Shown here in pieces: positions 1 to 26,972 of a DNA stretch of 64,000 bases. Position 1 is the first letter of the stretch. Each line of letters opens with the position of its first letter. The notes below the pieces were generated by a model, which did no database searches, had not been told where the DNA came from, and was given only the letters and a program-made list of their open reading frames with translations. The translations under genes were made by a program, and so were the position numbers. The stretch comes from Bacteroidota bacterium (GTDB lineage: Bacteria > Bacteroidota > Bacteroidia > JACCXN01), in the NCBI GenBank assembly GCA_013696965.1, contig JACCXN010000072.1, positions 9,336 to 73,335 of the forward strand. The letters run 5' to 3'.

Positions 1-83
1 TAGTTTATCGTACCACATGTTTAACAAGCTTTTTTTTAAACTTACGTGTGGTTTTCTTATTTGGATTTGAAAAATGAAAAAAT

Positions 84-965
84 TTATTCTTTTTCTGGAA
101 AATAAGGTTCTTTGAGAAAAGAAAGAATATCCCGGCCCATAGGGTTGTTCCTGAAATAAAGCTGGGCGATCATTCCGAAATGATTTCTTCCTTTTATTAC
201 TTTTAATGAGCAGAAGTTACCGGATTCATTGAGCTTATGGCAGAACATTTCGCTACTTTCAGAAATAGTTTTATACGTTTTAGATCCTGTAAAAACGAGA
301 AAAGGAACAGATCCTTCTTTGGGGATATGATAAATCGGGGAGGCCTTTCGCCATATACGGGGATCGGTTGTAAAAACTGCTCTTAAAGATTTGCTATAAT
401 TATTGTTGTATTGTTCAAAATAAGAAACCATATCCAGACCAAAGGCATCAATAAGTATGGTCTTTTTTATAGGGTTGTTAAGGTTTAAATCTTTAAACGT
501 ATTTCCTAAAGTAATTAAAGCGACAAGATGGCCCCCGGCCGAATGCCCTGCAACAGTTATTTTTTTAGGATCGCCACCGAATTTTGAAATGTTTTTGTAA
601 ACCCAGTCTGTTGCAGCAGCACAGTCCTCTGCCATCTTATCATATTTAACGGAAGGACTTAAACGGTAGTTTATCAAAACCGTAACAATGCCTTTTTTTG
701 CCATTCTATTACCGATAAAATGAAATCGGTTTTTACTTCCTGTGTTCCAACTGCCCCCGTGAACAAATACTAAAACCTCTCTTTTGTTTTCGCCAGGTTC
801 TGGATAAAAAATATCCAGGATATGCCTGTCAGGGTCAAATTCATTAAGGGTTTTATCCTTGTATGGAATATCTTTCGACTTACGGATGTTTGTGCTCCAT
901 AAAAAGGAGGTAAGAAAAATCGGAAGGGTCAACAATACCACGCTTTTCATTTTATTCTGAACCAA
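84..965 (-). CDS. secreted alpha/beta-hydrolase (esterase/lipase, hydrolase fold-3)
   Basis: N-terminal signal peptide; oxyanion-hole HGGSW and nucleophile elbow GHSAGG motifs in the translation. Confidence 0.8.
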   Translation of the reverse strand: MVQNKMKSVVLLTLPIFLTSFLWSTNIRKSKDIPYKDKTLNEFDPDRHILDIFYPEPGENKREVLVFVHGGSWNTGSKNRFHFIGNRMAKKGIVTVLINYRLSPSVKYDKMAEDCAAATDWVYKNISKFGGDPKKITVAGHSAGGHLVALITLGNTFKDLNLNNPIKKTILIDAFGLDMVSYFEQYNNNYSKSLRAVFTTDPRIWRKASPIYHIPKEGSVPFLVFTGSKTYKTISESSEMFCHKLNESGNFCSLKVIKGRNHFGMIAQLYFRNNPMGRDILSFLKEPYFPEKE

Positions 966-1777
966 GGGAAAAATGCATTCGTTGTTTTTTGATAGTTAAT
1001 ATATGCTTCTCCTTTTGATAAAACTGCCAGTTTCTCCAACATAGGAATGCCTGTTACATTATTCAATAAAAAATACATACTAATGGGTGAAGTTAAAGCC
1101 AGCCAGCCAAAAGGAGAGGATAATGCATAAACGGCAAAGCCGACCCATATCAGCCATTCGAAAAAATAATTGGGGTGGCGGGAATATTTCCAAAGTCCTT
1201 TTTGACAAACTTTTCCTTCATTTCCACTTTCTTTTTTAAAAGATTTAAGTTGTTTGTCTGCCACACTTTCCCCAACAAACCCTACCAACCAAATGGTAGA
1301 ACCGGAGATCTCAAAAAAAGAAACAGAGGAGTCCTGATCAATAAAAACCAACAAAAAAGGAATTGAAAGCAGCACGTTTGAAAATGCCTGGATTAAAAAA
1401 AACGACAGCATGTTACGATTGGCATTTTTTCCGTATCCTTTTCTCAATAAAGCATATCTTATGTCTTCTTTATTTCGGTGAAAAGAGTTTCGGATCAATA
1501 AATAAGTTCCAAGCCTTATGCTCCAAAACATTACCATGGCTATTAATAAAAAAATCCTGATAGAAGAACCTAAGGTTAGAAAATAAAAAAGAACGATCAG
1601 AAAAGTAAAATTATAGGCCCACCAGGCATCTACTATGCCGGCATTTTTTGTTTTTAATTGCCTTAGCCATACAATAAACAGTACCGATGAAGTAAGCAAT
1701 AGCCCCGATAATAGCATTTTAACAATAAGCAACATTATATTTATATAAGTTTTTTTACAAAAAAGAAGACAGAACAA
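947..1777 (-). CDS. polytopic membrane protein, DUF1295/ICMT/steroid-5-alpha-reductase-like
   Basis: multiple TM helices; C-terminal RHPNYFFEW motif typical of this methyltransferase/reductase-like fold; overlaps the esterase by 19 bp, suggesting an operon. Confidence 0.5.
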   Translation of the reverse strand: MFCLLFCKKTYINIMLLIVKMLLSGLLLTSSVLFIVWLRQLKTKNAGIVDAWWAYNFTFLIVLFYFLTLGSSIRIFLLIAMVMFWSIRLGTYLLIRNSFHRNKEDIRYALLRKGYGKNANRNMLSFFLIQAFSNVLLSIPFLLVFIDQDSSVSFFEISGSTIWLVGFVGESVADKQLKSFKKESGNEGKVCQKGLWKYSRHPNYFFEWLIWVGFAVYALSSPFGWLALTSPISMYFLLNNVTGIPMLEKLAVLSKGEAYINYQKTTNAFFPWFRIK

Positions 1778-1855
1778 ATTTAGGAAGACGGGAATTATAC
1801 AGAATTTAACTGGGTATAAAAAAAATGGTATATCCTTAAATTTAAATAAATTCTA

Positions 1856-2215
1856 TTAATTATTTTGTTTGATGAGCAAATCTTTTATACTCTCCTTTTC
1901 CTTTAACTGAAACAGTTCTTTTAATATGTAGATACAGGTGGCTACACTTCCCAGCAGAATCAAGAGTATTAACCACAATATCTTCTTATAGTGCTTTTTT
2001 TCTTTGTAAGCTATCCAAAGAAACAGCGCTGCTACATTGGCATAGAAATCAATAAGGGTAGCTTTCATCCAGGGTATTCGGATTAAATCCGGAAGTGCTT
2101 CAAAAAGATTGCTTTGCAGGCTTGTTTGTATAATGGTGAAAACCATTCCAATTAAAAGGATGGAAAAGAGGAAAATCAATAAGTTTTTTAGCATGGCAGA
2201 TATAAAATATATCAT
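1856..2215 (-). CDS. small hypothetical membrane protein
   Basis: 119 aa, 3-4 predicted TM helices, no recognisable motif. Confidence 0.4.
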   Translation of the reverse strand: MIYFISAMLKNLLIFLFSILLIGMVFTIIQTSLQSNLFEALPDLIRIPWMKATLIDFYANVAALFLWIAYKEKKHYKKILWLILLILLGSVATCIYILKELFQLKEKESIKDLLIKQNN

Positions 2216-2268
2216 ATATACGCTAAAAGAAAAGAGTTGGATTTTTAAAGAAGCAGAAAAAACGGAGA

Positions 2269-3111
2269 TTATACTTTTCCAAGCACAAACATTTCTTCCA
2301 TTGTAGGAGAAGGAGATCCTCCCTTTTTCTCTAAGGTTACCGCAAATGCCTGGGGGTTTTCAACCTGTTTCATTTTTTGCAGCGTTTCCAAACGATATTC
2401 AAAAACACCCATGTCCACCGGCTGGCCTTCCACAATTGCCCATAGTTGGTATTGTTTTCCGGAAGGGGGCTCGGGAAGGTTGTTTAAGCTTAAATAAACA
2501 CTGTTGTCAGAGGGATTGAAGTAAACAGAGGTAAGTCCGTCAGGTGCTTTGTTCTCAAGGCCTTTTAATAGCACTTTTATGTTGTTCGGGTCTTTCACAA
2601 CAGCGAGTTCTTCTTCTGTGTTGTTTAAATTTTCCTGTAGGGAGGATAGTGATGCCGAAACGGCATTTCTTTCTTCTGTTATATTTGTGATCTGTTGCTT
2701 TTGTCCAACATAATTCCTGTATAGGTTATAAGAGAACAAACCTGTTGCTATCAAAATTGAAACAGAAGCAGCGACAGCCAATTTAAGATAACCGGTTTTG
2801 GCACTTTCTGTTTTCACGTTATTGCCTGCATCATTAATTGAGATAATCTTTGATTCAGGCCCCTGTTTCTTTTTTTGCTGCTCTTCTATTTCTTCAACTT
2901 GCTTAAAAATTTTGTCTTTCAGAGTGGGGGGAGGTGTTGTTTGATGGGAAAAGGCATATCCTTCCATGGCACTTTCAAATCTTGAAAGTTCCTGTTTTAT
3001 TTCAGGGTAAATATGAGACATACATTCTACCTCACGCCTCTCTTGATCAGAAGCCTGTCCTAAAATATAGTCCTCCAATATTCCGGAAGATATGTAACTT
3101 TTTACATCCAT
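2269..3111 (-). CDS. anti-sigma factor, RskA-like (single TM, C-terminal extracytoplasmic domain)
   Basis: lies immediately downstream of an ECF sigma gene with abutting stop/start; has an N-terminal cytoplasmic anti-sigma-like segment, a central TM helix and a C-terminal QLWAIVEGQPVDMGVF-type RskA domain. Confidence 0.7.
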   Translation of the reverse strand: MDVKSYISSGILEDYILGQASDQERREVECMSHIYPEIKQELSRFESAMEGYAFSHQTTPPPTLKDKIFKQVEEIEEQQKKKQGPESKIISINDAGNNVKTESAKTGYLKLAVAASVSILIATGLFSYNLYRNYVGQKQQITNITEERNAVSASLSSLQENLNNTEEELAVVKDPNNIKVLLKGLENKAPDGLTSVYFNPSDNSVYLSLNNLPEPPSGKQYQLWAIVEGQPVDMGVFEYRLETLQKMKQVENPQAFAVTLEKKGGSPSPTMEEMFVLGKV

Positions 3112-3678
3112 TTAATTGAATAATTTCCTTAATTCTTTTAATGCGGCCCTTACCCTCGTTTTAACAGTTCCCAACGGAATGTTTAATTCTTTTGACGCCT
3201 CCTCATGGGTGTAACCTGAAAAATAGATTGCATGGATTACTTTTTGATACTCAGGGCCCAGTTTATTTACAACTTCCCTCATTCCTATTGTTTGAATATT
3301 GTTTTGATGGTTTTGGCTTTTATCAATAGTATATACGCTCTGATCGATATCTTGGATTTCGGGCCTTGTTTTTTTACTGCGTAATTTATCTATGGATTTA
3401 TTCCTGGCAATATTAAGCATCCAGGTAAACAGTGAACCTTTCTTTGCATCATAGCTCTCCATTGCCTGCCATATTTTAACAAATGCTTCCTGAAGAACAT
3501 CTTCAGCCAGTTCCTGGTCGGACAGTATTTTTATGACGACCCCGAACAAGGCGCCTGAATATTTATCATACAGATAGCTGAAAGCTTCTTTGTCTTTCTT
3601 TTTTAAAAGATCAACCAGCTCCTGCTCACTGTATGTTTTTTTGTTTTTTAACAAAGATTTTAATTTTGGGCCGGGCAA
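3112..3678 (-). CDS. ECF (sigma-70 family group IV) RNA polymerase sigma factor
   Basis: 188 aa with region 2 (DVLQEAFVKIWQ) and region 4 (HTHEEASKELNIPLGTVKTRV) signatures. Confidence 0.85.
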   Translation of the reverse strand: MPGPKLKSLLKNKKTYSEQELVDLLKKKDKEAFSYLYDKYSGALFGVVIKILSDQELAEDVLQEAFVKIWQAMESYDAKKGSLFTWMLNIARNKSIDKLRSKKTRPEIQDIDQSVYTIDKSQNHQNNIQTIGMREVVNKLGPEYQKVIHAIYFSGYTHEEASKELNIPLGTVKTRVRAALKELRKLFN

Positions 3679-4436
3679 ATATACATTTTTTCACATTCAT
3701 CCGAAACTTTTTATAAACCCCATTAAAATCCTCTGTAATTACTGATTTCATTGAAATAGCAATGAATTATTTCTGAAAACATCTCCTTTTTTTTGTTCCT
3801 ATGGCTTGTCCCTGAATTTGCACAACACTTACCTCCAATTGCCACCGTTAATCCAAAAATGTAGTCTGTTTTTAAGAAGTAACTGATTTTAAATAATCCA
3901 TTTGAGATTTTATAAAAAGCTCCTGTGCATTTATGATTTCAAGGTGCTTCCTGCCTATTATTGTATTGTTTAATTACTGTTACAGAATTATACTGTCGCT
4001 GGCATTTCAATTGGCAAATTGGCAATGAAAGGTCTGCCTAGTTAGAAATTTAAAACAAAAAAGGGAATAGTATATTTTAATGGAAAAATAAAATAGCCAT
4101 TATTACTCAGGTGTTTAAAATTATTGTTTAAGAGGTAATTAAATCGACCAAAGTGTTTGAAATTTGGTTTTTACACTTTTTGAGTGCTTTGCGTAACCTT
4201 TGCGAACTTTGCGGTTAAATACCAAAGATACTAACTTAAATCGTTATATATCAATAACTTAGCGAATCCACAAAAAGAATAGGAACTTGGCTTTTTTATC
4301 GTAATTAAAGATTCGAATTTTTATGCTGTAGAACCAAATCCACAAGTTTCATAAATAAGCCCACACCTTATTATTTATCTTCCCCTTAAGCAGCCGGAAT
4401 TTCAGTCGGGAACAGATTTTGGTTTTACTCCAGGTA
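3679..4436. promoter_or_regulatory. about 750-bp divergent intergenic/leader region between the ECF sigma operon and the GT2 operon
   Basis: unusually long noncoding stretch for this genome; contains a CTTTGCG x3 direct repeat (about 4185-4215); no ORF of 60 aa or more. Confidence 0.4.
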
Positions 4437-6305
4437 ATGAAAGAGTTTTATTTCAACCAGTTCGACCACCGTAAGCCATATAAACCCGTAAAAGATAACA
4501 TTTACAGGGCAAGGTTATTTCAGGTGGCCGGAATCCTGGCAATCATAGCAGGGCTGATTTACCTTTACTGGAGGTGGGCTTTTTCATTGAATTTTGATGC
4601 ACTCTGGTTCTCACTGCCGCTGGCCATAGCCGAAACATTCTCCTTTTTGGGGATTTGCTTTTTTATTTTCGATTTATGGCAAAATAAAGATGCAGCACAG
4701 CAACCAGCACCTCATTATTTATCAGAGGTGGAGGAGTTGAACGGGAGGGAAGACAGGCCCATTAAAATAGATGTTTTTATTGCCACTTTAAATGAAGAAG
4801 CAGAATTGCTAAGGTACACCATCAAAGATGCCAAAGCAATGGAATATCCTTTTGACGATATGCCTGTTCATATTTTTGTTTTGGATGATGGAAGGCGTGA
4901 CGGGCGCAATATTCACAAGGAAAATATAAAAAAACTCTGCCAGGAGGAAGGTGTAAAGTATATTTCCAGGGAACATAACACCGGTTATAAAGCAGGAAAT
5001 TTAAAAAACGGCATTGAACATACTTCTGGCGATTTTTTTGTAATACTTGATGCCGACAACAGGCCGTTTCCAGGTTTTTTAAAAAATACCCTTGGTTATT
5101 TCAAAAGGGAAAAAGTTGCCTGGGTGCAAACCTGCCATTGGTTTTATGATACCACAGAAACAATCCCTTTAAGTACCTACCTGATTAATGCCCTGGGCAT
5201 TACTTCTGAAAAACTTAAGAAAGCAATTATTTTTTCAACAGGATATATTAATACTGGCGGAGATATCTTCGGAAGTGAGCCAAGGCAGTTTTATGAGGTA
5301 ATCCAACGTAGAAGAAACTTCCACAATGCGTCCTTTTGTTGTGGCGCTGCATCTGTTCACAGAAGGGAAGCGGTTATGGGCAATTCCATTAAATTATTCA
5401 GTGAATCCTTCAATGAAGGCTTTCTGCAGGGGAAAATGCAAAAGGACAACCAAAACCTTATGGCAAAGCGGATGGAATTAATCCAAAGCAAAGAATTAAT
5501 GCCTTTTATGTTTCATGCCTCAGAAGACCTCTATTCTTCTATGGTTATCCACAGCGACAGTAAAAATAAATGGGAGAGCGTGCTTCACCCTTACGTGGAA
5601 AGTAAGTTGCTTTCGCCACAGGATATGCAAACCTTTGTAAAGCAAAGGCTTCGCTATGCAGAAGGCTCTATTGACATCGCCCTCCACGACAACCCCTTAT
5701 TCAAAAAAGGGCTTAGCTGGAGGCAAAAACTTTGTTATTTCCATACAGCCTGGGCTTATTTTTCCTGCATCTGGATACTGATATTCTTACTTAGCCCTAT
5801 CGTATTTTTCTTTACGCATCAATTGCCTGTGGATTGCAGCTCTACAGAATTTTTTGCAGTATTCATTCCTTTTTATTTCATCTATAAAATAGCCGAAACA
5901 GCAGGCTCCTGGGGAATCTCTCAAAAACGTGGCAGGCAGTATTATATATGCCTTTTCTGGATAAACCTTCAGGCAATCATCAGTGTTTTATCAGGCAAGA
6001 AAGTGAAATTCACAGTTACGCCTAAATATAAGCAGCAGTCGCACCCGCTAAAACATTCCTGGCCACATTTAACCATTATAATACTCACCGTTTCTGGTAT
6101 CATTTTAAATGGAATACTGGTGTTTTTTGGAAGTGAAAATCTCTCATTTGGCATTACCATGAATACTTTGTGGGGGCTTCATAATTGTTACACTTTAAGT
6201 GTTTATGTGCGCGCTGCGTATTGGGATACGGAATTATCCGGTGTTAAAGAAAAAGTTAAGGAAATCGAGAGAAAATCATATAGACCTCTGGCGGTAGAAG
6301 CCTGA
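4437..6305 (+). CDS. processive family-2 glycosyltransferase, cellulose-synthase/PgaC-like, membrane-embedded
   Basis: N-terminal TM helices; GT2 motifs (VLDDG, ILDADN, QTCHW, FCCGAASVHRREA, QRLRYAEGS as a QxxRW analogue); C-terminal TM bundle; the ORF track starts at TTG 4419 but ATG 4437 is the more likely start. Confidence 0.75.
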   Translation: MKEFYFNQFDHRKPYKPVKDNIYRARLFQVAGILAIIAGLIYLYWRWAFSLNFDALWFSLPLAIAETFSFLGICFFIFDLWQNKDAAQQPAPHYLSEVEELNGREDRPIKIDVFIATLNEEAELLRYTIKDAKAMEYPFDDMPVHIFVLDDGRRDGRNIHKENIKKLCQEEGVKYISREHNTGYKAGNLKNGIEHTSGDFFVILDADNRPFPGFLKNTLGYFKREKVAWVQTCHWFYDTTETIPLSTYLINALGITSEKLKKAIIFSTGYINTGGDIFGSEPRQFYEVIQRRRNFHNASFCCGAASVHRREAVMGNSIKLFSESFNEGFLQGKMQKDNQNLMAKRMELIQSKELMPFMFHASEDLYSSMVIHSDSKNKWESVLHPYVESKLLSPQDMQTFVKQRLRYAEGSIDIALHDNPLFKKGLSWRQKLCYFHTAWAYFSCIWILIFLLSPIVFFFTHQLPVDCSSTEFFAVFIPFYFIYKIAETAGSWGISQKRGRQYYICLFWINLQAIISVLSGKKVKFTVTPKYKQQSHPLKHSWPHLTIIILTVSGIILNGILVFFGSENLSFGITMNTLWGLHNCYTLSVYVRAAYWDTELSGVKEKVKEIERKSYRPLAVEA

Positions 6306-6333
6306 AATAATTTAATTATTAATAAGAATAAAC

Positions 6334-7014
6334 ATGAACTGGGAAACATTAATGTGCTTCGGAGATAGCATCACCATCGGGGCAAGAAGTTATTGCGGAT
6401 ATCCTGAATATGCCGGAAACCTTTTGGAAAAAAAACTTGGAAACAACTGGAATGTCATCAACCTGGCGGTGTGTGGCTATACCGCAATGGATTTGGCACG
6501 CTACATTAGCAGTAACTTTTCAAACCTAAAGCAATTTGAGCCAGGCATCATATCTATTTTGATAGGAACCAATGATGTAAAGAAAAACACCTTGCCTTCT
6601 GATTTTGAAATAGCATACCGGCAAGTTATCCTGAAAGCTTTGTTGCTTTCCTGCAACCGGAATGTGGTATTGATAAAATTGCCCTTTTTTCCTAAAAATG
6701 TAGCATATCCCTATAACTTCGGGATGAATAATAAAGTCGATTCATGCAATGAAATTATTGACCAATTGGCTGTGAATTATAACCTAAGGGCCATGGAATT
6801 TCATTTAAATGATGCTGACCTTTTCGATGGGGTACACTTGAATGCAACTGGTTCAAAAAATACCGGGGCACAATTATCGCGCTTTATTGAAGCGGATAAA
6901 GGGCTGGTTCAAATAAAAGAAATTCCTGCAATGGCTAAAGATGCAATCGCAGGAAACATCTTAAAGGATTTTGTTGGAAATGATTTAAGCACTTTCAAAG
7001 CAAAAAATGGATAA
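6334..7014 (+). CDS. SGNH/GDSL-family hydrolase (acyl-esterase or acetyltransferase-like)
   Basis: block I FGDSIT motif, GTND block and DGVHL block; 28 bp downstream of the GT2 gene. Confidence 0.75.
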   Translation: MNWETLMCFGDSITIGARSYCGYPEYAGNLLEKKLGNNWNVINLAVCGYTAMDLARYISSNFSNLKQFEPGIISILIGTNDVKKNTLPSDFEIAYRQVILKALLLSCNRNVVLIKLPFFPKNVAYPYNFGMNNKVDSCNEIIDQLAVNYNLRAMEFHLNDADLFDGVHLNATGSKNTGAQLSRFIEADKGLVQIKEIPAMAKDAIAGNILKDFVGNDLSTFKAKNG

Positions 7015-8194
7015 AGCATTATTGGCAATAGGAACAAGGCCTGAGCTCATCAAGGTTGCACCCGTTATCCGGGAGATGGAAAAGCGTGGCCTTCGGGGAC
7101 AATTAATCGTAGTAAATACCGGGCAGCATAAGGAGTTAATGAAAAACACCTTCCGGATTTTAGGAATTGATGCAGACTATACACTCGATTTAATGATTCC
7201 GGGCCAAAGTTTAAATGAATTAACCGCCAGGGCATTGGTGCAGTTTCAGCAATTAATAGATGAACTTCAGGTAAAAAATGAAAAACCTGCTATTTTTCTG
7301 GCCCAGGGTGATACCGCAACGGCTTTTGCAGCATCGGTTACTGCTTTTCATAATAAAATTCCATTTGCCCATATTGAAGCAGGTCTTAGGACAAATAACC
7401 TGGAGAATCCTTTTCCGGAGGAATATTACAGAAAAATCATCAGCCTGAATACGATGAAACATTTTACCCCAACTATATCGGCAAGCAACAACCTGTTAAC
7501 AGAGGGGATAAATCCAGAAAACATCATCATGACCGGAAATACGGTGGTTGATGCTATCGAATATATTAAAAAAGTTCAGTTAATGGATGAAGTTGCAAAA
7601 GATTTAAAATTGCCAATGCATTACCTTAAACAGCAGAAAAACCTGGTGCTGATTACATGCCACAGGCGTGAAAATTTTGGGGCTAATATGGAAAATATTA
7701 TAAAGGCCATTGGAGAATTGGCTCATGAAAACCCGGGCCATAATTTTGTTTGGCTGAGGCATCCGAACCCTTCTGTCCAAAAAAGCCTGGAACTAGCCAA
7801 AATTGGCGAACAGGCTAATGTTGCCATTATTGACCCGCTGGATTACTTTGACCTGGTAAGTATTTACCCATTCATAAAGATTATGATTACAGATTCCGGT
7901 GGCCTGCAGGAAGAGGCGCCTACCTTTAAAATTCCGGTGATTATTTTAAGGGAAACCACAGAACGTATGGAAAGCGTACAAAATGGTTTTGCATTTTTAT
8001 GCGGGGCAAACCGGGAAAAGATAAAAAATGCTTTTCAAGGCTGTGTTTTAAAACCGGTAAACATAACCCATAACCCTTATGGGGATGGAAAAGCCTCGAA
8101 TAGAATTGCTGATTTTCTCCAGGATTTCCTGAAGCCTGAAATTAAAATTATCATACAAAAAGAAGGTTATGAAGAATTGCACGCTAAAGTTTAA
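7007..8194 (+). CDS. wecB: UDP-N-acetylglucosamine 2-epimerase (non-hydrolysing)
   Basis: characteristic N-terminus (GTRPELIKVAPV...VNTGQH) and full-length similarity to WecB/MnaA; overlaps the SGNH gene by 8 bp. Confidence 0.85.
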   Translation: MDKALLAIGTRPELIKVAPVIREMEKRGLRGQLIVVNTGQHKELMKNTFRILGIDADYTLDLMIPGQSLNELTARALVQFQQLIDELQVKNEKPAIFLAQGDTATAFAASVTAFHNKIPFAHIEAGLRTNNLENPFPEEYYRKIISLNTMKHFTPTISASNNLLTEGINPENIIMTGNTVVDAIEYIKKVQLMDEVAKDLKLPMHYLKQQKNLVLITCHRRENFGANMENIIKAIGELAHENPGHNFVWLRHPNPSVQKSLELAKIGEQANVAIIDPLDYFDLVSIYPFIKIMITDSGGLQEEAPTFKIPVIILRETTERMESVQNGFAFLCGANREKIKNAFQGCVLKPVNITHNPYGDGKASNRIADFLQDFLKPEIKIIIQKEGYEELHAKV

Positions 8195-9503
8195 AACAGT
8201 TATTATTGGCGCAGGGCCTGCCGGCACAGGAATAATTTTTAATGCCATACGAAAGGGGAAGTTGAAGGAGCTATTAGAAGGTGGCCTTGCTTTTATTGAG
8301 TCAACAGGCAATTTTGCATCCGGTACTATCGGGAAGTACCTGGTTAATTCAGATTCTAATGGGGGAGTGTTTTTAGAATGTTTAAATGACACCGGCACCG
8401 ATTGGTTTAACCATCTCCAAGCGGATGAAAAAGTTAAATCTATTGCAGAAATGGCATCCAATCCTGTTCCTCTGGAATTAGTGGGTGAATATTTACATAG
8501 GCTTGGAGCAGCATTAAAAAACATAATAAATGGTATTTCCCCTTCCGGAATTTTTCAAAATTCAAAGGCAATTTCTATCTATAAAGAAAAAAGCGGGCAA
8601 TTTTTAGTTAAAATGCAAACAACAGAAGATGGCAAAGTAACAGAGCGCCTGATAGAAGCAGAATCCCTGGTATTTGCAATGGGTGGGAAACAGGATTTTG
8701 AGAATATGGCCAATAGCAGTATTACACCCTCATTAAAATTAAAAGAATTTGAACAGAAAATCTTCCTGACAGATGAATTTTTTACCGCTCCAGGACTATC
8801 AAAAGCGGAAGTATTAATTAGAAAAGCAAAATGTAATAAAGTTGTGGTCATTGGAGGCTCTCATAGTGCATTTTCATCCATTTGGCTGATGTTAAATAAA
8901 ATGAATGGAATTGAATTTGAAAAAGCAGCCATTTCCTTAATTCACAGGGGAAAGTTTAAACTGTTTTATGAATCAAAAGAAAAAGCGTGGGCGGAAGGTT
9001 ATGGTGATTTTACGGAAGCGGATATTTGCCCGGTAACGCAAAGGGTATTTCGGATGGGGGGCATGCGTGCCGATTCAAAGGACTTGCTAAGAAAACTTTT
9101 CGGCTTAAGCCATCAAAGGGAAGAAAGGATAGAACTGCTTGAAATTGATGATGGTGGCGATAATTCAGAAATTCTGAAAAAGAAATTGAATGAAGCGGCA
9201 CTCATCATACCTGCTTTTGGTTATCAGCCTAATACCATTCCTTTATATGATGAAGCAGGAGTTGAGCTCATGTTTTCCCAAAAACCACTGGTCAACAAAT
9301 ACTGCCAGGTAATGGATGTTAATGGGAATACTATTACCGGGCTTTATGGAATTGGGCTTGCATCCGGCTTTTTACCCTGGGGTGAAATGGGCGGTGAAGC
9401 CAGTTTCAATGGGCAAACCAATAGTTTATGGGCATACCAGCACGGAATAGGGGAGTTAATTTTTAACCAACTGATGAATGCCGGGAAAGTTATGGCGATA
9501 TAA
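8169..9503 (+). CDS. FAD/NAD(P)-binding flavoprotein with two dinucleotide-binding motifs (monooxygenase or oxidoreductase-like)
   Basis: N-terminal VIIGAGPAGTG and a second VVVIGGSHSAFS Rossmann motif; overlaps wecB, so likely the same operon. Confidence 0.55.
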   Translation: MKNCTLKFKTVIIGAGPAGTGIIFNAIRKGKLKELLEGGLAFIESTGNFASGTIGKYLVNSDSNGGVFLECLNDTGTDWFNHLQADEKVKSIAEMASNPVPLELVGEYLHRLGAALKNIINGISPSGIFQNSKAISIYKEKSGQFLVKMQTTEDGKVTERLIEAESLVFAMGGKQDFENMANSSITPSLKLKEFEQKIFLTDEFFTAPGLSKAEVLIRKAKCNKVVVIGGSHSAFSSIWLMLNKMNGIEFEKAAISLIHRGKFKLFYESKEKAWAEGYGDFTEADICPVTQRVFRMGGMRADSKDLLRKLFGLSHQREERIELLEIDDGGDNSEILKKKLNEAALIIPAFGYQPNTIPLYDEAGVELMFSQKPLVNKYCQVMDVNGNTITGLYGIGLASGFLPWGEMGGEASFNGQTNSLWAYQHGIGELIFNQLMNAGKVMAI

Positions 9504-9887
9504 AATCATCCCCATCAAGTCCTGATCCTAATTTTTAGTATTATATGTGGTTTGTGAAAAACAGAATGGCTGTTGGAGTTGATACCAAAGTCATAGGATG
9601 GGTGAGCAAAAAAGGGATGTTTTCGAAAATACAAATGAATATAACATGGCGAAACGTAAGTTCGTGAAATCAAAGATTCATGAACACCTTTAAAAATTAA
9701 AAGACAAGTGAATAATACATAAAAAAACACATGCTTTAGCATTGGCTTTGCCGAATCTTGATTTGGTAAAGCAAATCATCGATTTCATGAGTTCCTTAAA
9801 GGAATAATAAAAAAAACGAATAATTAAGGAATGAACAATTCCATTTGAATTTATTTTATCAAGAGATTTATTATAAGTAATTTTATT

Positions 9888-11006
9888 TTAAGCTTCTTCC
9901 AGAATCCGGATTAAACTGTCATTTAGGTAAAAAACTTCTTTTCCGTTTTTTTTATAGGATAAAATTCCTGCCTCAACCAACTCCGCCATGTATTTTGTTA
10001 AAGTTGTTCTGGAGGTTTTTCCTAATGCCTCTCCTACAACAGCAGGCTTAATATAAGGTTGATAAAAAAGCGCCTCATTTACTTCCTTGTTGTACCATTT
10101 GATTTCCTTTTTTCCATGGCTTAATGTTGACTCCATTTGTTTGATGATCTGGTCGATTAAATCATTGGTAATTGCAGAGGTTTTGCATACTGCTTCAAGC
10201 ATATACAGTACCCATGGCTTCCAGGCGTTTCTTTGTGTTACAGCGCCCAGGTTAAAATAGTAATCCTCCTTATTATTAATGATATATTTTGAAAGGTAAA
10301 GAATAGGGTGGGAAAGTAGCTTTTTCTGAACCAAGTAGAGCAGGTTCAAAATCCTTCCTGTCCTTCCATTTCCATCCTGAAATGGGTGGATTGCTTCAAA
10401 TTGATAATGGGCAATACACATTTTCAGTAAAGGGTCTTCTGGAAATTGCACATCGTCATCCATATAATCCAACAGGTTTTTTACAAGTTTTTCAATGATG
10501 CCTTTTCCTCTTGGTGGCGTATAGATTACTTCCCCCGGTTTAAATTCACTCGGGCCACGCTTAATAACCACAAGGGCATGTGGAGGGCGAAAACCGGTAT
10601 GGGCATTTTTAACCATCTGAAATACCCTCTTAATAGTTTCTTCCTGTATAATGCCATTCTTTGTAAGTTCATCATGCCCTGCCCATAAGGCTTCTCTGTA
10701 CCTCAATACTTCTTTGGTTGATAAATCAGCATCTTTCTCCTTTACGCTATCTGAAATTGCTTTATATAATTCGTCTTCAGTTGTAAAAATATTCTCTATT
10801 TCTACAGATGTTTTAGCCTCCTGAAGCGCAATGGTATTAATGAGCATAAAAGGATTCGGCAACCTCAGGATATTAGCATTTACGGTTGCCAATTCCCTTG
10901 AAGCCAACAGCAGTTTTTTAAGGATTTCCAGGTCCTCGTCCAGTTTTTTAGAAGGAGGAAGCAATGGTAATTCATTATATGGGAGGTTTCGATCTAATTT
11001 AGCCAT
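9888..11006 (-). CDS. Fic/DOC family protein (class II, auto-inhibited) with C-terminal winged-helix domain
   Basis: HPFQDGNGRTGR active-site motif; N-terminal inhibitory SxxxEN motif (TSVEIEN); about 370 aa. Confidence 0.85.
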   Translation of the reverse strand: MAKLDRNLPYNELPLLPPSKKLDEDLEILKKLLLASRELATVNANILRLPNPFMLINTIALQEAKTSVEIENIFTTEDELYKAISDSVKEKDADLSTKEVLRYREALWAGHDELTKNGIIQEETIKRVFQMVKNAHTGFRPPHALVVIKRGPSEFKPGEVIYTPPRGKGIIEKLVKNLLDYMDDDVQFPEDPLLKMCIAHYQFEAIHPFQDGNGRTGRILNLLYLVQKKLLSHPILYLSKYIINNKEDYYFNLGAVTQRNAWKPWVLYMLEAVCKTSAITNDLIDQIIKQMESTLSHGKKEIKWYNKEVNEALFYQPYIKPAVVGEALGKTSRTTLTKYMAELVEAGILSYKKNGKEVFYLNDSLIRILEEA

Positions 11007-11185
11007 ACGTCCATTTATTTGCTTTTATTGAACATGTTTACGAAATTAAATAAAAAACTGGACATATAATCATAACATGTCCATTATTTGCCTTTTATTG
11101 AACATGTGTAGTTTTGTTGTACAGAAACTGGACATATAATCGTTACATGTTCATTTTATATTAAAAATTGAACATGTTTGGTTTG
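11007..11185. repeat. 2.5 copies of a 70-bp tandem repeat abutting the fic start codon
   Basis: ACTGGACATATAATC...ACATGT...TTATTGAACATGT units at 11057 and 11127 plus a partial copy at 11007; each unit carries AACATGTT-type palindromes. Confidence 0.8.
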
Positions 11186-11310
11186 AATTGATAAAAAGCG
11201 GAGCATCAATTTTTTCTTTTACAGGTTTGTAATTTCCTACCTGTAGAATGATTATCAAAACCTACTCATAGTCCTGAGCCTTTACCTGCACATGGAGAAG
11301 AGTCAATGTT

Positions 11311-11766
11311 AGTATTATTATTAATTAAAGTTTCGGAGTTGTAAATTCCTTGTTTTACTGATGTTTCAGTATGTAAAAATATTTTAGATAAAAAACTGAA
11401 ACATAGAATTAGTGCTTCCAGCACATTTATGTTCAATTGTTTGGCAAAACACACATTGTTGAAAATTAGCAATTTGCGTTGTTGTATTTTTTTAATATAC
11501 TGAAATTAAGGCAATTAAATCAGCTCCGAAACTTCAGTTATTAATTAAAGTTTCGGAGTTGTAAATTCCTTGTTTTACTGATGTTTCAGTATGTGAAAAT
11601 ATTTTAGATAAAAAACTGAAACATAGAATTAGTGCTTCCAGCACATTTATGTTCAATTGTTTGGCAAAACACAAATTGTTGAAAATTAGCAATTTGCGCT
11701 GTTGTATTTTTTTAATATACTGAAATTAAGGCAATTAAATCAACTCCGAAACTTCAGTTATTAATT
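11311..11766. repeat. two tandem 220-bp units, MITE-like with terminal inverted repeats and internal hairpins
   Basis: period exactly 220 bp (11321 to 11541), about 98% identity between copies; each unit bounded by AAGTTTCGGAGTTG / CAACTCCGAAACTT inverted repeats; internal 10-bp stem ATGTTTCAGT/ACTGAAACAT. Confidence 0.8.
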
Positions 11767-12099
11767 TCCTCATAACTAAGTTCAAATCTTCTGTTTTTCA
11801 GCATTAAATCTAATTAACCATTCGGCTATCAATACATACCTCTTCTTCTCCATAAAATTTAGCCAAAAAAACACCTTCGCAATTTGTGATATTTAGAATT
11901 CAGGTAGTAAAGTGGCTGACGGAATTGCCCAAGGTGGGGGAAACCTTCTGCAGAAGCTAAAAAATGTTTTCCTAATCCCGATTCTACCCAATACTCAAAC
12001 GGTTTTTGGTGTAGATAAACATTTCTGGAATTGCTGATTTTTCTTTAATGGATAAAAGGGTATGATTTTAGAAAAATTTAAGTAATTAATACTTAAAAA

Positions 12100-14469
12100 A
12101 TGAAAAGGCTGTATCTGTTTTTCCTTATGTTTTTAATGCAGGTAAATCTTTATGCACAGGAGATAGAGTGGGCAAAGAAGATTAGTATTCCTTTTTGGAA
12201 TCCACATGGAATGTTATATGATAATTCCGGAAATGTTTATCTCTATGGCTCATATTACAGAAACTGGAACATCAATGATCCTGGCCAGGTTATAAATGAT
12301 ACTGTAGGTTCCTTTATTCAAAAATATTCCGATGAAGGCGAATTAATATTTGAAAAAAGGTGGAAGCTTCCATTTTATATCGTTAAAATGATTTTTGATG
12401 GTGATAATGCCTTTTATTTTACTGGCTGTTTTGCAGGTTCTCTTAATCTAAATGGAGTTGCTTTTAATAGTATGGGCGAATATGATGGTATGGTAGGGAA
12501 AATGGACTTAAATGGCAATATTTATTGGGTTAGTACTTTCGGAGGAGGTAAATCTGATTTTGGAATGGGCATAAGCATGTATGCCAATAGCACAAATTTG
12601 CTGATAACAGGTTCTGTAGCTGATTCTCTTTTTGTAAACAGCCAGTATAAAGGCAGTGAACCCCTTCCAATGTTTTTAGGCATTTTTAATTTAAATGGGC
12701 ATAATATAAAAAACAAACTTGTTGATTTTATTCCTGAAAGAATCCATTCAAATAGAGGAATAGAAATAACCTGCGACAAGAATAATGAAATTTTTGTTCT
12801 TGGGGACAGAGAAGGCGCCCATTGGTATGGTGATACTATTGATGGCCCTTTAGCAGGAAGATATATCATAAAATTTAATGAAAATCTTGATACCCTATGG
12901 TCGAGGTATTTGATTGGGCCATCCTGTTATAACGGATGGAGCAATGGAAATCTTGTAGCCGACAGCAAGTGAGATATTTATACCAGAAGTTACTGCTCTT
13001 TTAAATATGGTGGAGATGGCAGTATCAGCAGGTTAAGTAATTCGAATGCAAGTACATTATGGACAGGGCAAAATAGGGATGGGGGTTATAGTGATATTTT
13101 TTTCCGTAACAATTCCATATGGTTTGTTGGTAAAGAAGGGGCAAATGGCTGCCCTTGCCCTGGCAGCAATTCTGGTTATCAGGTGATAAAGAAGATGGAT
13201 GAAAATAACCAACTTTTGGGTGAGGCAAGGATAATGGGAGTATGGCTACGGAAAATTATTCAGGATAATCAGGGAAATGTATTTGTATATGGTGCTTTTA
13301 ATGAAAGGCAAGCACATATTGGCAAAGATGTAATACTAGCTGATAGTATTTCAAGCAGTGGTACTTCTTTTTACTATTCTGGACATTTTTTAATCAAACT
13401 GAATGATAAAAACTGTACTCCTCCAAGTATTAATGATGTACCACACCATCCATTTAACAGGATTATTTGCCCAGATCAGGTCTTTCAACTTGATGCAGGC
13501 CCTGGCTTTGTGGATTATGAGTGGAGTAATGGTTCTAAAACTCAGAAAATAGAAGTTTCTGAGCTAAACAGATATACCGTAAAGGTGAAGGATAAGAATA
13601 ATTGCATTTCATACTCATCTCCAATTTCAATTTTACATAAAGAAAATAGTTCTGTACACAATTTATGCCTGATAACTTATGAAAATGATAAACAAATAAT
13701 TTATGGCACTTTGAATTTTGATTATAGTACAAAGAATTATAAAATATACAAAATAGATAAAGCAACAGGAGATACTGTAGATGTTTTGTTTGAAGATTAC
13801 AAAAATTATTTAAATGTTCAATTTGTTGATGAAAATTCTACACCTTCAACCAAAGCTTATTTATATTCCATTTCAAAGGTTGATACTTGTGGCCTTGAAT
13901 CACCAGTTAGTGTTGCCCATAAGCCAATTCTGCTAAAAATAAGAAAGGAAGGCACAAGTAATTTACTTGAGTGGGAGCCTTATGAAGGGATGGATATTCA
14001 TAGCTATCATATTTATAAAGGAACAGATAAAGGGAAGATGCGTTTGGTTGATTCTATTGGTGTTTCAGTTTTAATTTACGTTGACACAAATCTGGATAGC
14101 CTTTTTCATTATCAGGTGAAGGCCAACAAAAAATTATTTTGTTACTTGGGTAGTAGTAATTATTTTGGAACTACATCTTCAAATATTGTTGTGGATGAGG
14201 CCTATGTACCTACAATTGTTGAGGCAACTGAAATGGATATTAATGCCGATCTCTTTCCTAACCCTGCCCATGATATTTTAACCATTCAGCTTCCTGAACA
14301 AAAACAAGTAACTATAGTTCTTAAAAACCTATTAGGAGAGGTACTTTATAAAACCTCAGGCAATCAAAATAAATTTGAAATTCCAATGCAAAATTTTAAA
14401 CAGGGTTTATATGTTATTTCTATTGATTATGGAGTGGAAAGGAAGCAGTTTAAAATTATAAAACATTAA
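12100..14469 (+). pseudogene. T9SS-sorted secreted repeat/Ig-like protein interrupted by one in-frame TGA (12970-12972)
   Basis: ORFs 12100-12972 and 13183-14469 are in the same frame with no other stop between them; N-terminal signal peptide; C-terminal T9SS CTD (LFPNPAHDILTIQL...). Confidence 0.6.
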
Positions 14470-14804
14470 AAGTTTTTAGTCATAAAGGCTGTTGTAATTT
14501 AGGATGGTATAAATTATCTATTTATACTTTTGGTTTTATACTTGCAAGGAAAACTTTAAAATATATTTAAGCAGTTTTCATTCTGTATTCTACATTTTGA
14601 TACTATCAAATGCTAATGAAGCCACCTAATGAAATAACCCACCTGAACAAAAAAAATCAGTATTAAAGTAATCAGCCTTTTCATAATCTACACTTTTTAA
14701 TTTAAAATCTTAAGCATTTTCATCACTACAACTTGTCCCGTCCCGAAAGCTTTATAGGTCATCGGGATCACCATAATCCGCTAATCATCGCATCCGCTAA
14801 TTAG

Positions 14805-16877
14805 TTAATTGATAACCAGCTTCCTCCTCACCAAATCCTCCCCAACTTTCACCTGCACAAAATAAATTCCTTTAGAAAAGCCACTGGTGCTGATGTTTTC
14901 GTTGCTTTTTACCTGGCGCTGGAGCATAATTCTTCCTGAAAAATCGGTGATGGTAACATCAGCTTTCTCGGCTTCAAAAGAAAGGGTGAAATGGGAAGAG
15001 GTGGGGTTTGGGTGGAGGAGAAAATTAATTCTATTTATTGCTTCCGACTCTATACTGACATTACTACTTAATTCCATGCTGTGTATATAAACTCCTCCTC
15101 TGTTCAGCGATGCATAGAGTTTACCATCTCTTACAACTAATCGCCAAATTTTATTTCCTGCTAAATCATTTTCTAAATCAAAATCTATCCCCTCATTCAT
15201 TGGTTCCCAGGTTTTGCCAAAATCTTTGGTGAACAAAAGGTTTCCATTATAATTGACTGTAATGGCTATTAGTGAATCCTCTATAACAATATTGCTAACA
15301 AGATTTTTAAATCTCATATTTGAATTGTCTTCCCAGGCCTTGTTCCAGGTGGCCCCACCATCACGGGAGATATAGAGGCCTTGGTTAAAAGTACCTATGC
15401 ATATTATATCACCTTTTACTTTTGCTGAGTATATTTCCCATATACCCAACCAGGAAAGAATTGCAATTTTTTTAAAGGTTATACCACCATCATCTGACCT
15501 AAATAATTCCTGCCTTGTAAAGCCATAAATGAAATCATTGTCTGAATCCAATAAGCTATAATTTTCACCTCCTAAATATTTATAAGATTTTCCTTCAAGC
15601 TCATATAGCCCGTGAGTGGTGGACAGCAACAGTTTACCTTTATGCTTTAAAAAACTTTTGGCACTTATATCATTTGTACTGTCAGGAAAAATGACTTCCC
15701 ATTCATTGCCTCCTTGTTTTAAGATGCTTAATTGTAGTTTATCGTCAATAATATAAATATCCCCTTTGTAAGTTTGTGCTTGGGTAATATAACCTGGGGA
15801 AAAATAGGGAGTAGGTTTGCCTGAATCAGAAAAGGCGAATTGAGTGCTTAAGTCAGGAGATATTTTTTCCCATTTCTGTTTTTTCTCATCCAGCTTGTAT
15901 AGTTTTTGATTAATTGAAGCTAACAGGCCTGCATCAGTATTTGAAAGGCTATATACTGGAGCGCCATTTAGAAATATGCTGGCTTCTTCCCAGGTGCCAT
16001 TGTTGAATTTGTATATTCCATTAAAATTATCTGTTCCTGCAAATAAATGCCCTTTGAACTTTACAAAAGAGGTTACATTTTTTCTTTCAAGTCCGGTACC
16101 CAGGTAATTCCATGTTAAGCCATTATCAACAGAATAGTACACACCGTTGATGGTGCCAGCATAGAGGGTGTCAGTGTCCATAAAAAAAGTTCTTAGGTAT
16201 GCAGGTATAGATATGGTTTGTTCCAGCCACGTTTGCCCCAGGTTTGGAGAAATATGATAACCTAAAAAAATACTGTCCCCTTTAAATTCTAAGGCATTTG
16301 AGCTTCTTGGAGAATCAATGGTTTTCCATGATAAGCCATTGTTATAAGATATACAAGTTTTGCCTTCATTTTGCCTTTTTGTACTTGCTATTAAGGTATT
16401 ATTTCCAGCTGCAAATGAAACAAAATTCCCTCCTATGACTAATTTCCAGGTATTATCATTGAAGCCACATTTTAAAATTCCACCCTGATGGCAGAAAAAA
16501 ACAGTGTCATCAATCGCTGCAAATCTAGGTACACCATCCCAACTAGAGGAATGAAAGTAAAAGTTATCATTCTGAATCATCTCCTGCCAGGAATCTCCGT
16601 TATCAAGGGAAACATAGTATTTACCTGTGTAAATAAATAATTTTCCTCTGTAGTGAAAAATGGCCCTTGTGAATTCATAATTATTAAAATTCCATGTTTT
16701 GCTTCCATCATCAGAAAAATATAACCCTCTATCGGTGCCAGCGAAAATTCGAGTATCGGAGGCCGCAAGGCAATTAATAGTCGCACCGTAAGGCCCGTTT
16801 GTGGGCTGCCAACTTTCCTGGGCCTGTACTAAGCCCTGTAATACAACAACCATTGAAAACAAAATCAACTTTCTCAT
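14805..16877 (-). CDS. BNR/Asp-box repeat protein with T9SS C-terminal sorting domain
   Basis: signal peptide; many SxDxGxTW Asp-box repeats; C-terminal LHPNPTSSHFTLSFEAEKADVTITDFSGRIM...KLVIN block shared with the four downstream genes. Confidence 0.8.
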   Translation of the reverse strand: MRKLILFSMVVVLQGLVQAQESWQPTNGPYGATINCLAASDTRIFAGTDRGLYFSDDGSKTWNFNNYEFTRAIFHYRGKLFIYTGKYYVSLDNGDSWQEMIQNDNFYFHSSSWDGVPRFAAIDDTVFFCHQGGILKCGFNDNTWKLVIGGNFVSFAAGNNTLIASTKRQNEGKTCISYNNGLSWKTIDSPRSSNALEFKGDSIFLGYHISPNLGQTWLEQTISIPAYLRTFFMDTDTLYAGTINGVYYSVDNGLTWNYLGTGLERKNVTSFVKFKGHLFAGTDNFNGIYKFNNGTWEEASIFLNGAPVYSLSNTDAGLLASINQKLYKLDEKKQKWEKISPDLSTQFAFSDSGKPTPYFSPGYITQAQTYKGDIYIIDDKLQLSILKQGGNEWEVIFPDSTNDISAKSFLKHKGKLLLSTTHGLYELEGKSYKYLGGENYSLLDSDNDFIYGFTRQELFRSDDGGITFKKIAILSWLGIWEIYSAKVKGDIICIGTFNQGLYISRDGGATWNKAWEDNSNMRFKNLVSNIVIEDSLIAITVNYNGNLLFTKDFGKTWEPMNEGIDFDLENDLAGNKIWRLVVRDGKLYASLNRGGVYIHSMELSSNVSIESEAINRINFLLHPNPTSSHFTLSFEAEKADVTITDFSGRIMLQRQVKSNENISTSGFSKGIYFVQVKVGEDLVRRKLVIN

Positions 16878-16937
16878 TATCTTAAACTTTCAATTTTCTA
16901 AAAACCACATCCGTTAATCCGCTAATCATTTCATCCG

Positions 16938-18389: not shown

Positions 18390-18509
18390 AATTTACACTT
18401 TTTAATTTAAAATCTTATGCATTTTACCATCACCAAATCACTTTCCCGATTCGTACCTCAAATGGATTTCGCTTCTCTCATAATCCGCTAATATCGCATC
18501 AGCAATTAG

Positions 18510-20051: not shown

Positions 20052-20203
20052 AATTATAAATTTTTATTCTCAATTCACTCAACATCAGCTAATCCGATTC
20101 CCTATTCCTACCTCACCGGGATTTCGCTCTCTCATAATCCGCTAATCATCGCATCAGCTTCCCGATTCGAACCTCATCGGGATTTCGCTTCGCTCAAAAT
20201 CCG

Positions 20204-21796: not shown

Positions 21797-21818
21797 CTTT
21801 TAACTTTTAACTTTTAAT

Positions 21819-23375: not shown

Positions 23376-23574
23376 TTTTTACTTGTGCATCTATTGGATA
23401 GTGTAATAAAACTTTGCCGTTATTTCAGGAAAAAGTAAATGCTTGTGTCTCTGTTTTTCAGAAAGTTGGGCAGATGTGCCTCTTGCACAGGATGGGGAAT
23501 TTTTTTCCTTTGGATTAACTAGTGAGTAGGGGAATCAAAATTGCAAATACAAATCGCAAGTTCTTGACAATCAA

Positions 23575-24963: not shown

Positions 24964-25129
24964 TGATTTGTTTTTTATAGTAATTACCGATATTTATTAA
25001 CGTTAAAAAGTGCCAAAAATATAAGGTTTTGCAAAAATATCATTTTACTTTGTTCCTTTTTACGAGAATAAACTTTATTTTAGCGCTCTGAATAAGGGTA
25101 TTTTCAATAAAACTAACCAAAAATAAACA

Positions 25130-26047: not shown

Positions 26048-26119
26048 TTATTCCCGTTGATACCATTTAAAGTCTAATTTTTGTACTTATTGGACTAAAG
26101 TAAATACGATTAAACTGGC

Positions 26120-26154
26120 TGGAAGCCACTCCATTTATGGGGTGGCTTTTTTTA
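26120..26154 (+). terminator. rho-independent terminator after sucD
   Basis: GC-rich hairpin AGCCACTCC-loop-GGGGTGGCT followed by T7. Confidence 0.6.
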
Positions 26155-26258
26155 TTGGCTTATATTAAACTATTTGGCAAGGTTTTGAATTGGTTTAAGC
26201 AAGAGAATGAATGATTTGGAGGATTAAAAGAGTAAAAACAACTTAAATATTAATAATT

Positions 26259-26756: not shown

Positions 26757-26972
26757 AATTATTTTGGCTTCAAAAACCTATTTATTCAATGGGCTGACTT
26801 TAATTAGTCAGTCCATTTTTTTATTAATATACCCATTAATTAATAATAAAGTTTCTCGAATTGTGGAAGATTCTCTTCAAATTTAATTTTTTACTCTTAA
26901 CATTCCAAGAAATATTCAACTCATAAGTGGAGGAGCCAATGCGGCAAGATTTTTTAATTAAGTTAAAATGAC

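Follow-up and report, generated by a model that had tools for sequence, protein, structure and literature searches.

We analysed a window of 64,000 nucleotides (nt) from a contig of a Bacteroidota bacterium (JACCXN010000072.1; G+C about 36%) and found that it carries, at positions 4437-9503 of the forward strand, a four-gene operon encoding a membrane-embedded family 2 glycosyltransferase (GT2), an SGNH/GDSL hydrolase, a UDP-N-acetylglucosamine (UDP-GlcNAc) 2-epimerase of the WecB type and a flavoprotein with two dinucleotide-binding domains. This operon is a conserved unit, it is rare, and it consists of four genes and not of the six proposed in a first-pass annotation, which had added to it a divergent pair of genes for an extracytoplasmic function (ECF) sigma factor and an RskA-type anti-sigma factor. 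It is a variant of the synthase-dependent polysaccharide systems, arranged around an uncharacterised enzyme family, and does not constitute a new category; its sugar chemistry may be new.

The identities of the open reading frames (ORFs) were assigned from Pfam and NCBIfam profile scores, compared with the cut-offs of the models. The GT2 gene (4437-6305; Pfam GT2 and Cellulose_synt matches) is followed after 28 nt by the SGNH/GDSL hydrolase gene (6334-7014; PF13472, 78.6 bits vs. a cut-off of 32.9), which overlaps by 8 nt the gene for a non-hydrolysing, WecB-type epimerase (7007-8194; TIGR00236, 346 vs. 210; PF02350, 1.6e-91), and this in turn overlaps by 26 nt the flavoprotein gene (8169-9503; a weak Pyr_redox_2 match and no NCBIfam match). 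The GT2 most probably starts at the ATG at 4437 in place of the TTG at 4419, and its residues are counted here from that ATG. A region of 758 nt (3679-4436), comprising the divergent intergenic region and the GT2 leader, separates the operon from the sigma factor gene. The ORF calls, Pfam and NCBIfam confirmed the positions and identities of all six genes as first annotated, together with the tight, overlapping packing of the four and the long divergent intergenic region. Proteins of the window match those of an uncultured, metagenome-derived Bacteroidota genome with 100% identity.

Conservation of the operon was assessed in two surveys. The first one, based on one genome per species, yielded 80 loci with GT2 homologues, and in none of them (0/80) was an SGNH, WecB or flavoprotein gene, or the sigma pair, found within 10 kb of the GT2 homologue. 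The second survey started from homologues of the flavoprotein and identified the genes GT2, SGNH, WecB and flavoprotein in identical order on three further Bacteroidota contigs (loci L081/L082, L168 and L173), where they are also tightly packed, with short gaps or overlaps. The co-occurrence of the four genes in other genomes, which had been suggested as a check of the first-pass annotation, was borne out by these copies. Their identity to the window proteins is 57-61% for GT2, 64-68% for SGNH, 56-63% for WecB and 45-47% for the flavoprotein. The L173 copy has WecB fused to the flavoprotein in one polypeptide of 836 amino acids (aa).

The GT2 synthase and its relatives

By fold, motifs and channel homology, the GT2 is predicted to be a processive synthase-translocase of the BcsA type. 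Its sequence contains the motifs DDG (residues 150-152), DAD (205-207), FCCGA (300-304), SED (362-364), QRLRY (403-407) and FTVTPK (525-530), and across an alignment of 24 GT2 homologues DDG, DAD, FCCGA, SED and the FxVTxK gating loop are invariant. The QxxRW hallmark of processive GT2 synthases reads QRLRY here (window 5643-5657), with a tyrosine that is invariant in all 24 aligned homologues. A phmmer search of the PDB matched BcsA chains only (5e-37), spanning the GT-A domain and the transmembrane (TM) and gating-loop region, and in the channel part residues 363-590 of the GT2 were aligned to residues 456-685 of BcsA, the gating loop FTVTPK included. With the AlphaFold2 (AF2) model of the protein (pLDDT 75), Foldseek returned BcsA as the best match (3e-24, TM-score 0.66) and then plant CesA, with chitin synthases (Chs) and hyaluronan synthases (HAS) far weaker (E 1e-7 to 1e-6, TM-score 0.33-0.43). 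Profile scores, the BcsA alignment and Foldseek thus all agree with the earlier view of the GT2 as processive and BcsA-like and not as a single-addition glycosyltransferase. The PgaC model TIGR03937 gave 52 bits vs. a cut-off of 422 (and the NodC model 28 bits). Extra sequence is indeed present, but in the alignment with Escherichia coli BcsA it is divided into two inserts, of about 26 and about 37 residues, in place of the one large insert first described.

The GT2 lies nevertheless outside BcsA proper. It has no BcsB partner, and it scores 235 bits vs. an equivalog cut-off of 699 with the CelA model TIGR03030 and 169 vs. 992 with NF008558. As originally noted, it has no PilZ domain (no match in Pfam or NCBIfam), the protein stopping about 30 residues past its last helix, and therefore no built-in switch for cyclic diguanylate (c-di-GMP). 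The nearest relative by both sequence and fold is BcsA of the BcsA-BcsB systems of E. coli and Rhodobacter sphaeroides, with which the GT2 has in common the GT-A domain with DDG, DxD and (T/S)ED, the FxCG motif, the interface helices, the channel helices and the FxVTxK loop, whereas it has two N-terminal helices compared to four in BcsA. Unlike in Bcs systems, no BcsB, BcsC or BcsZ gene is found near it, and to our knowledge WecB, SGNH and flavoprotein genes have never been described for Bcs systems. The poly-N-acetylglucosamine (PNAG) synthases PgaC/IcaA, NodC, HAS and Chs are also membrane-embedded processive GT2s, using UDP-N-acetylhexosamine (UDP-HexNAc) donors, but they are much more distant from the window GT2 than BcsA.

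PilZ-less BcsA-like synthases form a large family in Bacteroidota (loci L004-L061, for example L004 3578-6068, and L042-L073). A STAS-like protein of about 120 aa is encoded upstream of the GT2 in 46 of the 80 loci, and a membrane protein of about 95 aa, the N-terminus of which matches that of DUF3131 proteins (E 1e-11), downstream of it in 37. In a second GT2 clade (Saprospiraceae, Flavobacteriales), the GT2 is accompanied by a full-length DUF3131 protein and by a putative barrel protein (about 287 aa), and in Rhodobacterales loci the GT2 is preceded by a STAS::nucleotidyltransferase fusion, with a DUF3131 protein in about half of them. On the basis of its Pfam clan assignment, we take DUF3131 to have a six-hairpin glycosidase-like fold. 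Taken together, these arrangements suggest that in the PilZ-less GT2 family a STAS-based control replaces control by c-di-GMP. No remnants of the sister-clade partner genes (STAS protein, small TM protein, 168-aa protein of L082) were found across the whole window.

The operon GT2s included in a neighbour-joining tree (window, L082 and L168) form one subclade, separate from the STAS and DUF3131 clades, and some metagenome-assembled genomes hold both GT2 paralogues. The operon GT2s are separated from the other clades at 24 positions, among which QTP is changed to QTC and QHxRY to QRxRY. These specificity positions were considered as a tie of the synthase to the other three genes of the operon and rejected as such, because at 20 of the 24 at least two of the GT2s of loci L001-L003, where those three genes are missing, share the operon-clade residue.

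The SGNH-WecB-flavoprotein module and its proposed product

The blocks GDS, G, GTND and DGVH of the SGNH hydrolase are kept in 6/6 family members. The window protein has the N-terminus MNWETLMCFGDS, with GDS beginning at residue 10 and the catalytic serine at residue 12; the orthologues all start MNWETL-C-GDS and none of them has a signal peptide. The hydrolase is therefore predicted to be cytoplasmic and unable to act on an exported polymer. In consequence, the first-pass annotation was right in the SGNH/GDSL identity of the protein (PF13472) and not in the O-acyl modification or deacylation of the finished polymer which it had ascribed to it, and a role as periplasmic O-acetyl-esterase or transferase was ruled out by the missing signal peptide. 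Similarity to TesA structures is weak. The WecB gene product is assigned, as it had been before, as a UDP-GlcNAc 2-epimerase, and its profile scores indicate the non-hydrolysing type and not the hydrolysing NeuC type (TIGR03568, 75 bits vs. a cut-off of 236).

The flavoprotein belongs to a rare but real family, for which an exhaustive profile search among 1.84 billion cluster representatives (E<=1e-30) returned 586 clusters. Its Pfam matches are generic (Pyr_redox_2, Pyr_redox_3), and a profile of the family, compared with PDB sequences, matched a short Rossmann motif and nothing more. The AF2 model of the window protein (pLDDT 92) allowed a structure-based assignment, according to which the fold is closest to that of the N-hydroxylating flavin monooxygenases (NMOs), with domains for flavin adenine dinucleotide (FAD) and NADPH. 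The top Foldseek matches in the PDB were putrescine N-hydroxylase, DfoA, SidA and PvdA (7us3 and 5o8r included), with E 3e-12 to 1e-10, TM-score about 0.55 and identity of 13-15%. These class B NMOs are the best full-length structural matches and share with the flavoprotein the two dinucleotide-binding domains; the known ones belong to siderophore pathways and have amino acids or diamines as substrates, whereas the family of the window protein sits with, or is fused to, nucleotide-sugar enzymes. The second dinucleotide motif, GGSHSA, and the motif AFGY resemble the NMO motifs GxGQSA and ATGY. The family alignment shows no conserved redox-active cysteine pair, the sole invariant cysteine being C287.

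Many members of the family are fusions, and the partners, namely Epimerase_2 (N-terminal), DegT/DnrJ/EryC1 (on either side), a GH76-like barrel, Glucosamine_iso and GT8, are all amino-sugar or nucleotide-sugar enzymes. For distant members, the preceding gene usually encodes a CBS-DegT aminotransferase, and genes for GT4 enzymes and FkbM methyltransferases lie close by; the DegT-linked members form one large clade and the WecB-linked members separate clades. We infer for the family a role in tailoring amino sugars while these are nucleotide-bound. As the reaction we favour N-oxygenation, with a keto-sugar-forming dehydrogenase as the main alternative; flavin N-hydroxylases have been reviewed as accepting amino sugars (PMC7347517).

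Two members were found in cultured actinobacteria, which are tractable for enzyme work. In Candidatus Mycobacterium wuenschmannii (L167, 10001-11452) the gene lies in a large glycan cluster with WecG, PIG-L, many methyltransferases and GT4 genes, and in Actinoplanes sp. NBC_00393 (L165, 10001-11299) it is part of a glycan cluster with two GT2 genes, a divergent Epimerase_2 gene and a gene for an (alpha/alpha)6 protein.

The amino-sugar N-oxygenases of antibiotic pathways (the nitrososynthases ORF36, KijD3 and DnmZ, as well as CalE10) oxidise the amino group that an aminotransferase of the DegT type has placed on a sugar. The flavoprotein may share with them the overall chemistry, but their folds are those of acyl-CoA dehydrogenases or P450, in contrast to the two-Rossmann, NMO-like fold modelled here.

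The SGNH-WecB-flavoprotein module is also present without a BcsA-like GT2. In L084 and L106 an SGNH gene stands with a fused WecB-flavoprotein gene, in L117 SGNH, WecB and flavoprotein genes are followed by a GT4 gene, and in L172, L089 and the Actinoplanes locus the order is WecB, GT4, (alpha/alpha)6 protein and flavoprotein. The commonest neighbour of the module is a glycosyltransferase, which fits a role in donor-sugar supply. Since the three proteins constitute a separate module in the cytoplasm, it is most likely the nucleotide-sugar donor, and not the polymer, that is modified.

In the mechanism that we propose, the PilZ-less BcsA-type synthase would polymerise a UDP-activated sugar at the cytoplasmic face and thread the chain through its own membrane channel, while the SGNH hydrolase, WecB and the NMO-like flavoprotein, translationally coupled behind the GT2, would act in the cytoplasm as a donor-tailoring module. 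WecB would convert UDP-GlcNAc to UDP-N-acetylmannosamine (UDP-ManNAc), and the flavoprotein and the SGNH hydrolase would modify the 2-acetamido sugar, most likely by de-N-acetylation and then by N-oxygenation dependent on flavin, NADPH and O2, or alternatively by a flavin-dependent oxidation elsewhere on the sugar. The product would be a beta-linked polymer of ManNAc or mannosamine (ManN), analogous to the backbone of Listeria Pss, plus an unusual modification. We give this model as a whole, a polymer derived from ManNAc or ManN through donor tailoring and a synthase, an even chance of being correct. Neither a BcsB-like partner nor an outer-membrane exporter is encoded in the operon, and the polymer may therefore stay periplasmic or use genes located elsewhere.

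A beta-1,4-ManNAc backbone is known from Pss, a synthase-dependent exopolysaccharide of Listeria (PMC13492145). Polymerisation of the WecB product by a BcsA-like machine is therefore possible. The Pss system of L. monocytogenes (pssA-E, with PssC as the synthase) was compared with the window operon by its description, and the two are alike in being synthase-dependent, as far as the proposal for the window goes. Pss comprises a BcsB-like subunit (PssD), a c-di-GMP receptor (PssE) and a dedicated hydrolase (PssZ). None of these accessory types is encoded in the window operon; conversely, we know of no WecB, SGNH or flavoprotein gene in the Pss operon, and the host of Pss is Listeria as opposed to a Gram-negative member of Bacteroidota.

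Several observations weigh against the proposed mechanism. On the side of the synthase, the GT2s of L001-L003 nest in the operon subclade and carry its signature residues, without SGNH, WecB or flavoprotein genes within 10 kb. This is the chief argument against an obligatory link, and the synthase may thus work independently of the module. The wider GT2 family mostly has no donor-synthesis genes nearby, which, together with the likeness to BcsA and CesA, fits a common donor such as UDP-glucose. Furthermore, no BcsB-like gene was found in the annotated part of the window (84-11006, 12100-28466 and most of the larger ORFs up to 55 kb), and no periplasmic or outer-membrane component is encoded in the operon. 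On the side of the module, SGNH enzymes are usually esterases, for which an N-deacetylation would be unusual. The fold match of the flavoprotein to the NMOs is a distant one, nearly equalled in score by those to bacillithiol disulfide reductase (Bdr/YpdA) and to ferredoxin-NADP reductases, and the model PF13434 (Lys_Orn_oxgnase) did not match the window flavoprotein and touches 3 of 35 family members, with a best E of 0.019.

Two other readings have to be considered. The GT2 could make an ordinary beta-glucan from UDP-glucose, cellulose-like or of mixed linkage, as the other members of its family may do, with the co-transcribed module making a separate product, e.g., a small glycoside or a sugar destined for another glycan. 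BcsA and CesA are by far the nearest structures and sequences, the L001-L003 synthases belong to the same subclade and have no module, the module occurs elsewhere with GT4 enzymes or alone, and the sister GT2 clade pairs with the DUF3131 protein, for which we assume a glycosidase-like fold. The order GT2-SGNH-WecB-flavoprotein, however, has been preserved in four lineages despite their divergence (45-68% identity), which argues for a functional dependence beyond co-regulation, and the predominance of glycosyltransferases among the neighbours of the module fits a supply of donor. We consider this beta-glucan reading possible, though on the unlikely side.

The second reading concerns the flavoprotein, which could be a keto-sugar-making dehydrogenase or oxidase, or a thiol/disulfide reductase like Bdr, in which case the operon would yield a HexNAc polymer that is oxidised or epimerised and lacks N-O chemistry. 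A keto-sugar is what DegT enzymes require as their substrate, and fusions of DegT with the flavoprotein occur in both orders; in addition, the reductases stand among the top fold matches, the Pfam matches are generic and the Lys/Orn oxygenase model touches few members. In contrast, N-hydroxylases consistently take the top places among the full-length fold matches, the GGSHSA and AFGY motifs look like those of NMOs, and a conserved redox-active cysteine pair is missing from the family. The oxidation of sugar alcohols is normally carried out by enzymes of the GFO/IDH/MocA, SDR and GMC folds. On balance, we regard a flavoprotein without N-oxygenase activity as improbable.

The divergent sigma pair and the neighbouring genes

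The genes for the RskA-type anti-sigma factor (2269-3111, reverse strand; PF10099, 82.6 vs. 29.4; NF052375, 107.6 vs. 100) and for the SigK-like ECF sigma factor (3112-3678, reverse strand, as listed; TIGR02937, 104.7 vs. 42.9) abut at 3111/3112. The sigma factor has sigma-70 regions 2 and 4 only and adjoins an anti-sigma gene with RskA_C, and these profiles, above their cut-offs, bear out the identities given in the first-pass annotation. The pair recalls mycobacterial SigK-RskA, SigK being the best NCBIfam subfamily of the sigma factor and the anti-sigma factor carrying the RskA C-terminal domain, but the sigma score is far under the subfamily cut-off (131 vs. 226) and thousands of such pairs exist in Bacteroidota, where 3782 homologues of the anti-sigma factor were counted. 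In three sampled loci (L169-L171) the sigma/anti-sigma pair is flanked on either side by differing genes, and a GT2 operon is missing. Conversely, the ECF pair was found near none of the three other operon copies, upstream of which lie Fur, KatG and a hypothetical gene (L081/L082), a tRNA and unidentified genes (L168) or a NUDIX gene (L173).

A perfect Bacteroidetes housekeeping-type promoter, TTTC-N19-TATATTTG, is present within 3654-3710 on the reverse strand and overlaps the listed start codon TTG at 3678; as this TTG is inside the TATATTTG element, the sigma gene probably begins at another TTG, at 3654. The motif AATGTnAAAAAAT was found upstream of the orthologous sigma genes of L169, L170 and L171, two of the copies differing by a base or two, whereas the GT2 leader showed no clear instance of it. 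Nor was an ECF-type promoter (a -35/-10 pair like AAC-N16/17-CGT), for which a search had been suggested, found in the leader, and the sigma side and the GT2 side of the intergenic region had in common only repeats at chance level. In the GT2 leader, the promoter scan indicated as the best candidate for a GT2 promoter TTTG-N21-GAACTTTG (4179-4211, forward strand), overlapped by a triple CTTTGCG direct repeat (4179-4213, forward strand), and a perfect TATCTTTG element at 4230 on the strand opposite to the leader. An Rfam scan of positions 1-14000 with a permissive threshold gave no riboswitch or leader RNA, a scan with sigma-70 and terminator consensus sequences gave no enrichment vs. shuffled sequence, and no credible small ORF was found in the 758-nt intergenic region.

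Behind the anti-sigma gene, with short gaps or overlaps, lie genes for DUF1475, DUF1295 (a steroid-reductase/ICMT-like membrane protein) and an alpha/beta-hydrolase esterase (84-2215, reverse strand). These genes and the sigma pair may be transcribed as one unit; the set is not conserved in the three other sigma/anti-sigma loci.

The first-pass annotation had proposed that the sigma pair drives the divergent operon and that the polymer is made under envelope stress. ECF sigma factors often regulate genes nearby, and the divergent adjacency over 758 nt is the one physical observation in favour of such a control, which we consider very unlikely given the three operon copies without the pair, the unrelated neighbours of the pair in the three sampled loci, the perfect housekeeping-type promoter of the sigma gene, the lack of an ECF-type site or shared motif in the divergent region and the likely membership of the pair in a separate transcription unit. 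The best reading is that the sigma pair, with its own housekeeping-type promoter, lies beside the operon by coincidence; control of the operon by the sigma factor is not supported.

At the other end of the operon, the consensus scan alone gave weak evidence of a terminator-like hairpin 3' of the flavoprotein gene (9742-9754, forward strand). A gene for a Fic/SoFic-like protein adenylyltransferase (9888-11006, reverse strand; Fic_N, Fic and SoFic-like C domains) is convergent with the operon end and closes the unit; it is missing from the other operon copies. Further along, at 12100-23375 and 26973-28466, the window contains at least seven consecutive or close genes with the type IX sorting domain Por_Secre_tail, one of them with BNR/sortilin repeats and four adjacent ones of similar size (483-530 aa), which look like a paralogous cargo array.

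Significance of the operon

In the searchable literature we found no description of the gene set or of the flavoprotein family, and the literature on DUF3131, on STAS together with cellulose-synthase-like enzymes in Bacteroidetes and on WecB together with an N-hydroxylase did not describe this system; the earlier statement that the gene combination is not a described exopolysaccharide system can therefore be retained. The set of synthase-dependent exopolysaccharide systems is small, comprising those for cellulose, PNAG, alginate, Pel, Pss and hyaluronan, and each of them has taught a distinct lesson on secretion or modification. The operon would add to them a variant in which the modification chemistry takes place on the donor sugar, in the cytoplasm.

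A more specific idea, which we put forward as speculative and rather improbable, is that the flavoprotein family is the first N-oxygenase of the NMO fold to act on nucleotide-activated amino sugars, the SGNH-WecB-flavoprotein module yielding an N-hydroxylated mannosamine donor (hydroxylamino or hydroxamate) which the PilZ-less synthase polymerises. If this were true, the product would be a polysaccharide with N-O groups, e.g., a metal-chelating matrix polymer; we know of no described polysaccharide with such groups.

The PilZ-less BcsA-like family of Bacteroidota must be regulated in a way other than by the binding of c-di-GMP to PilZ. The operon and its flavoprotein are worth experimental follow-up: the reaction of the flavoprotein, once solved, would annotate at once all the glycan clusters with members of the family, which is fused to WecB or DegT in hundreds of protein clusters across bacteria, including those of Mycobacterium and Actinoplanes, and might reveal a new class of sugar modification.

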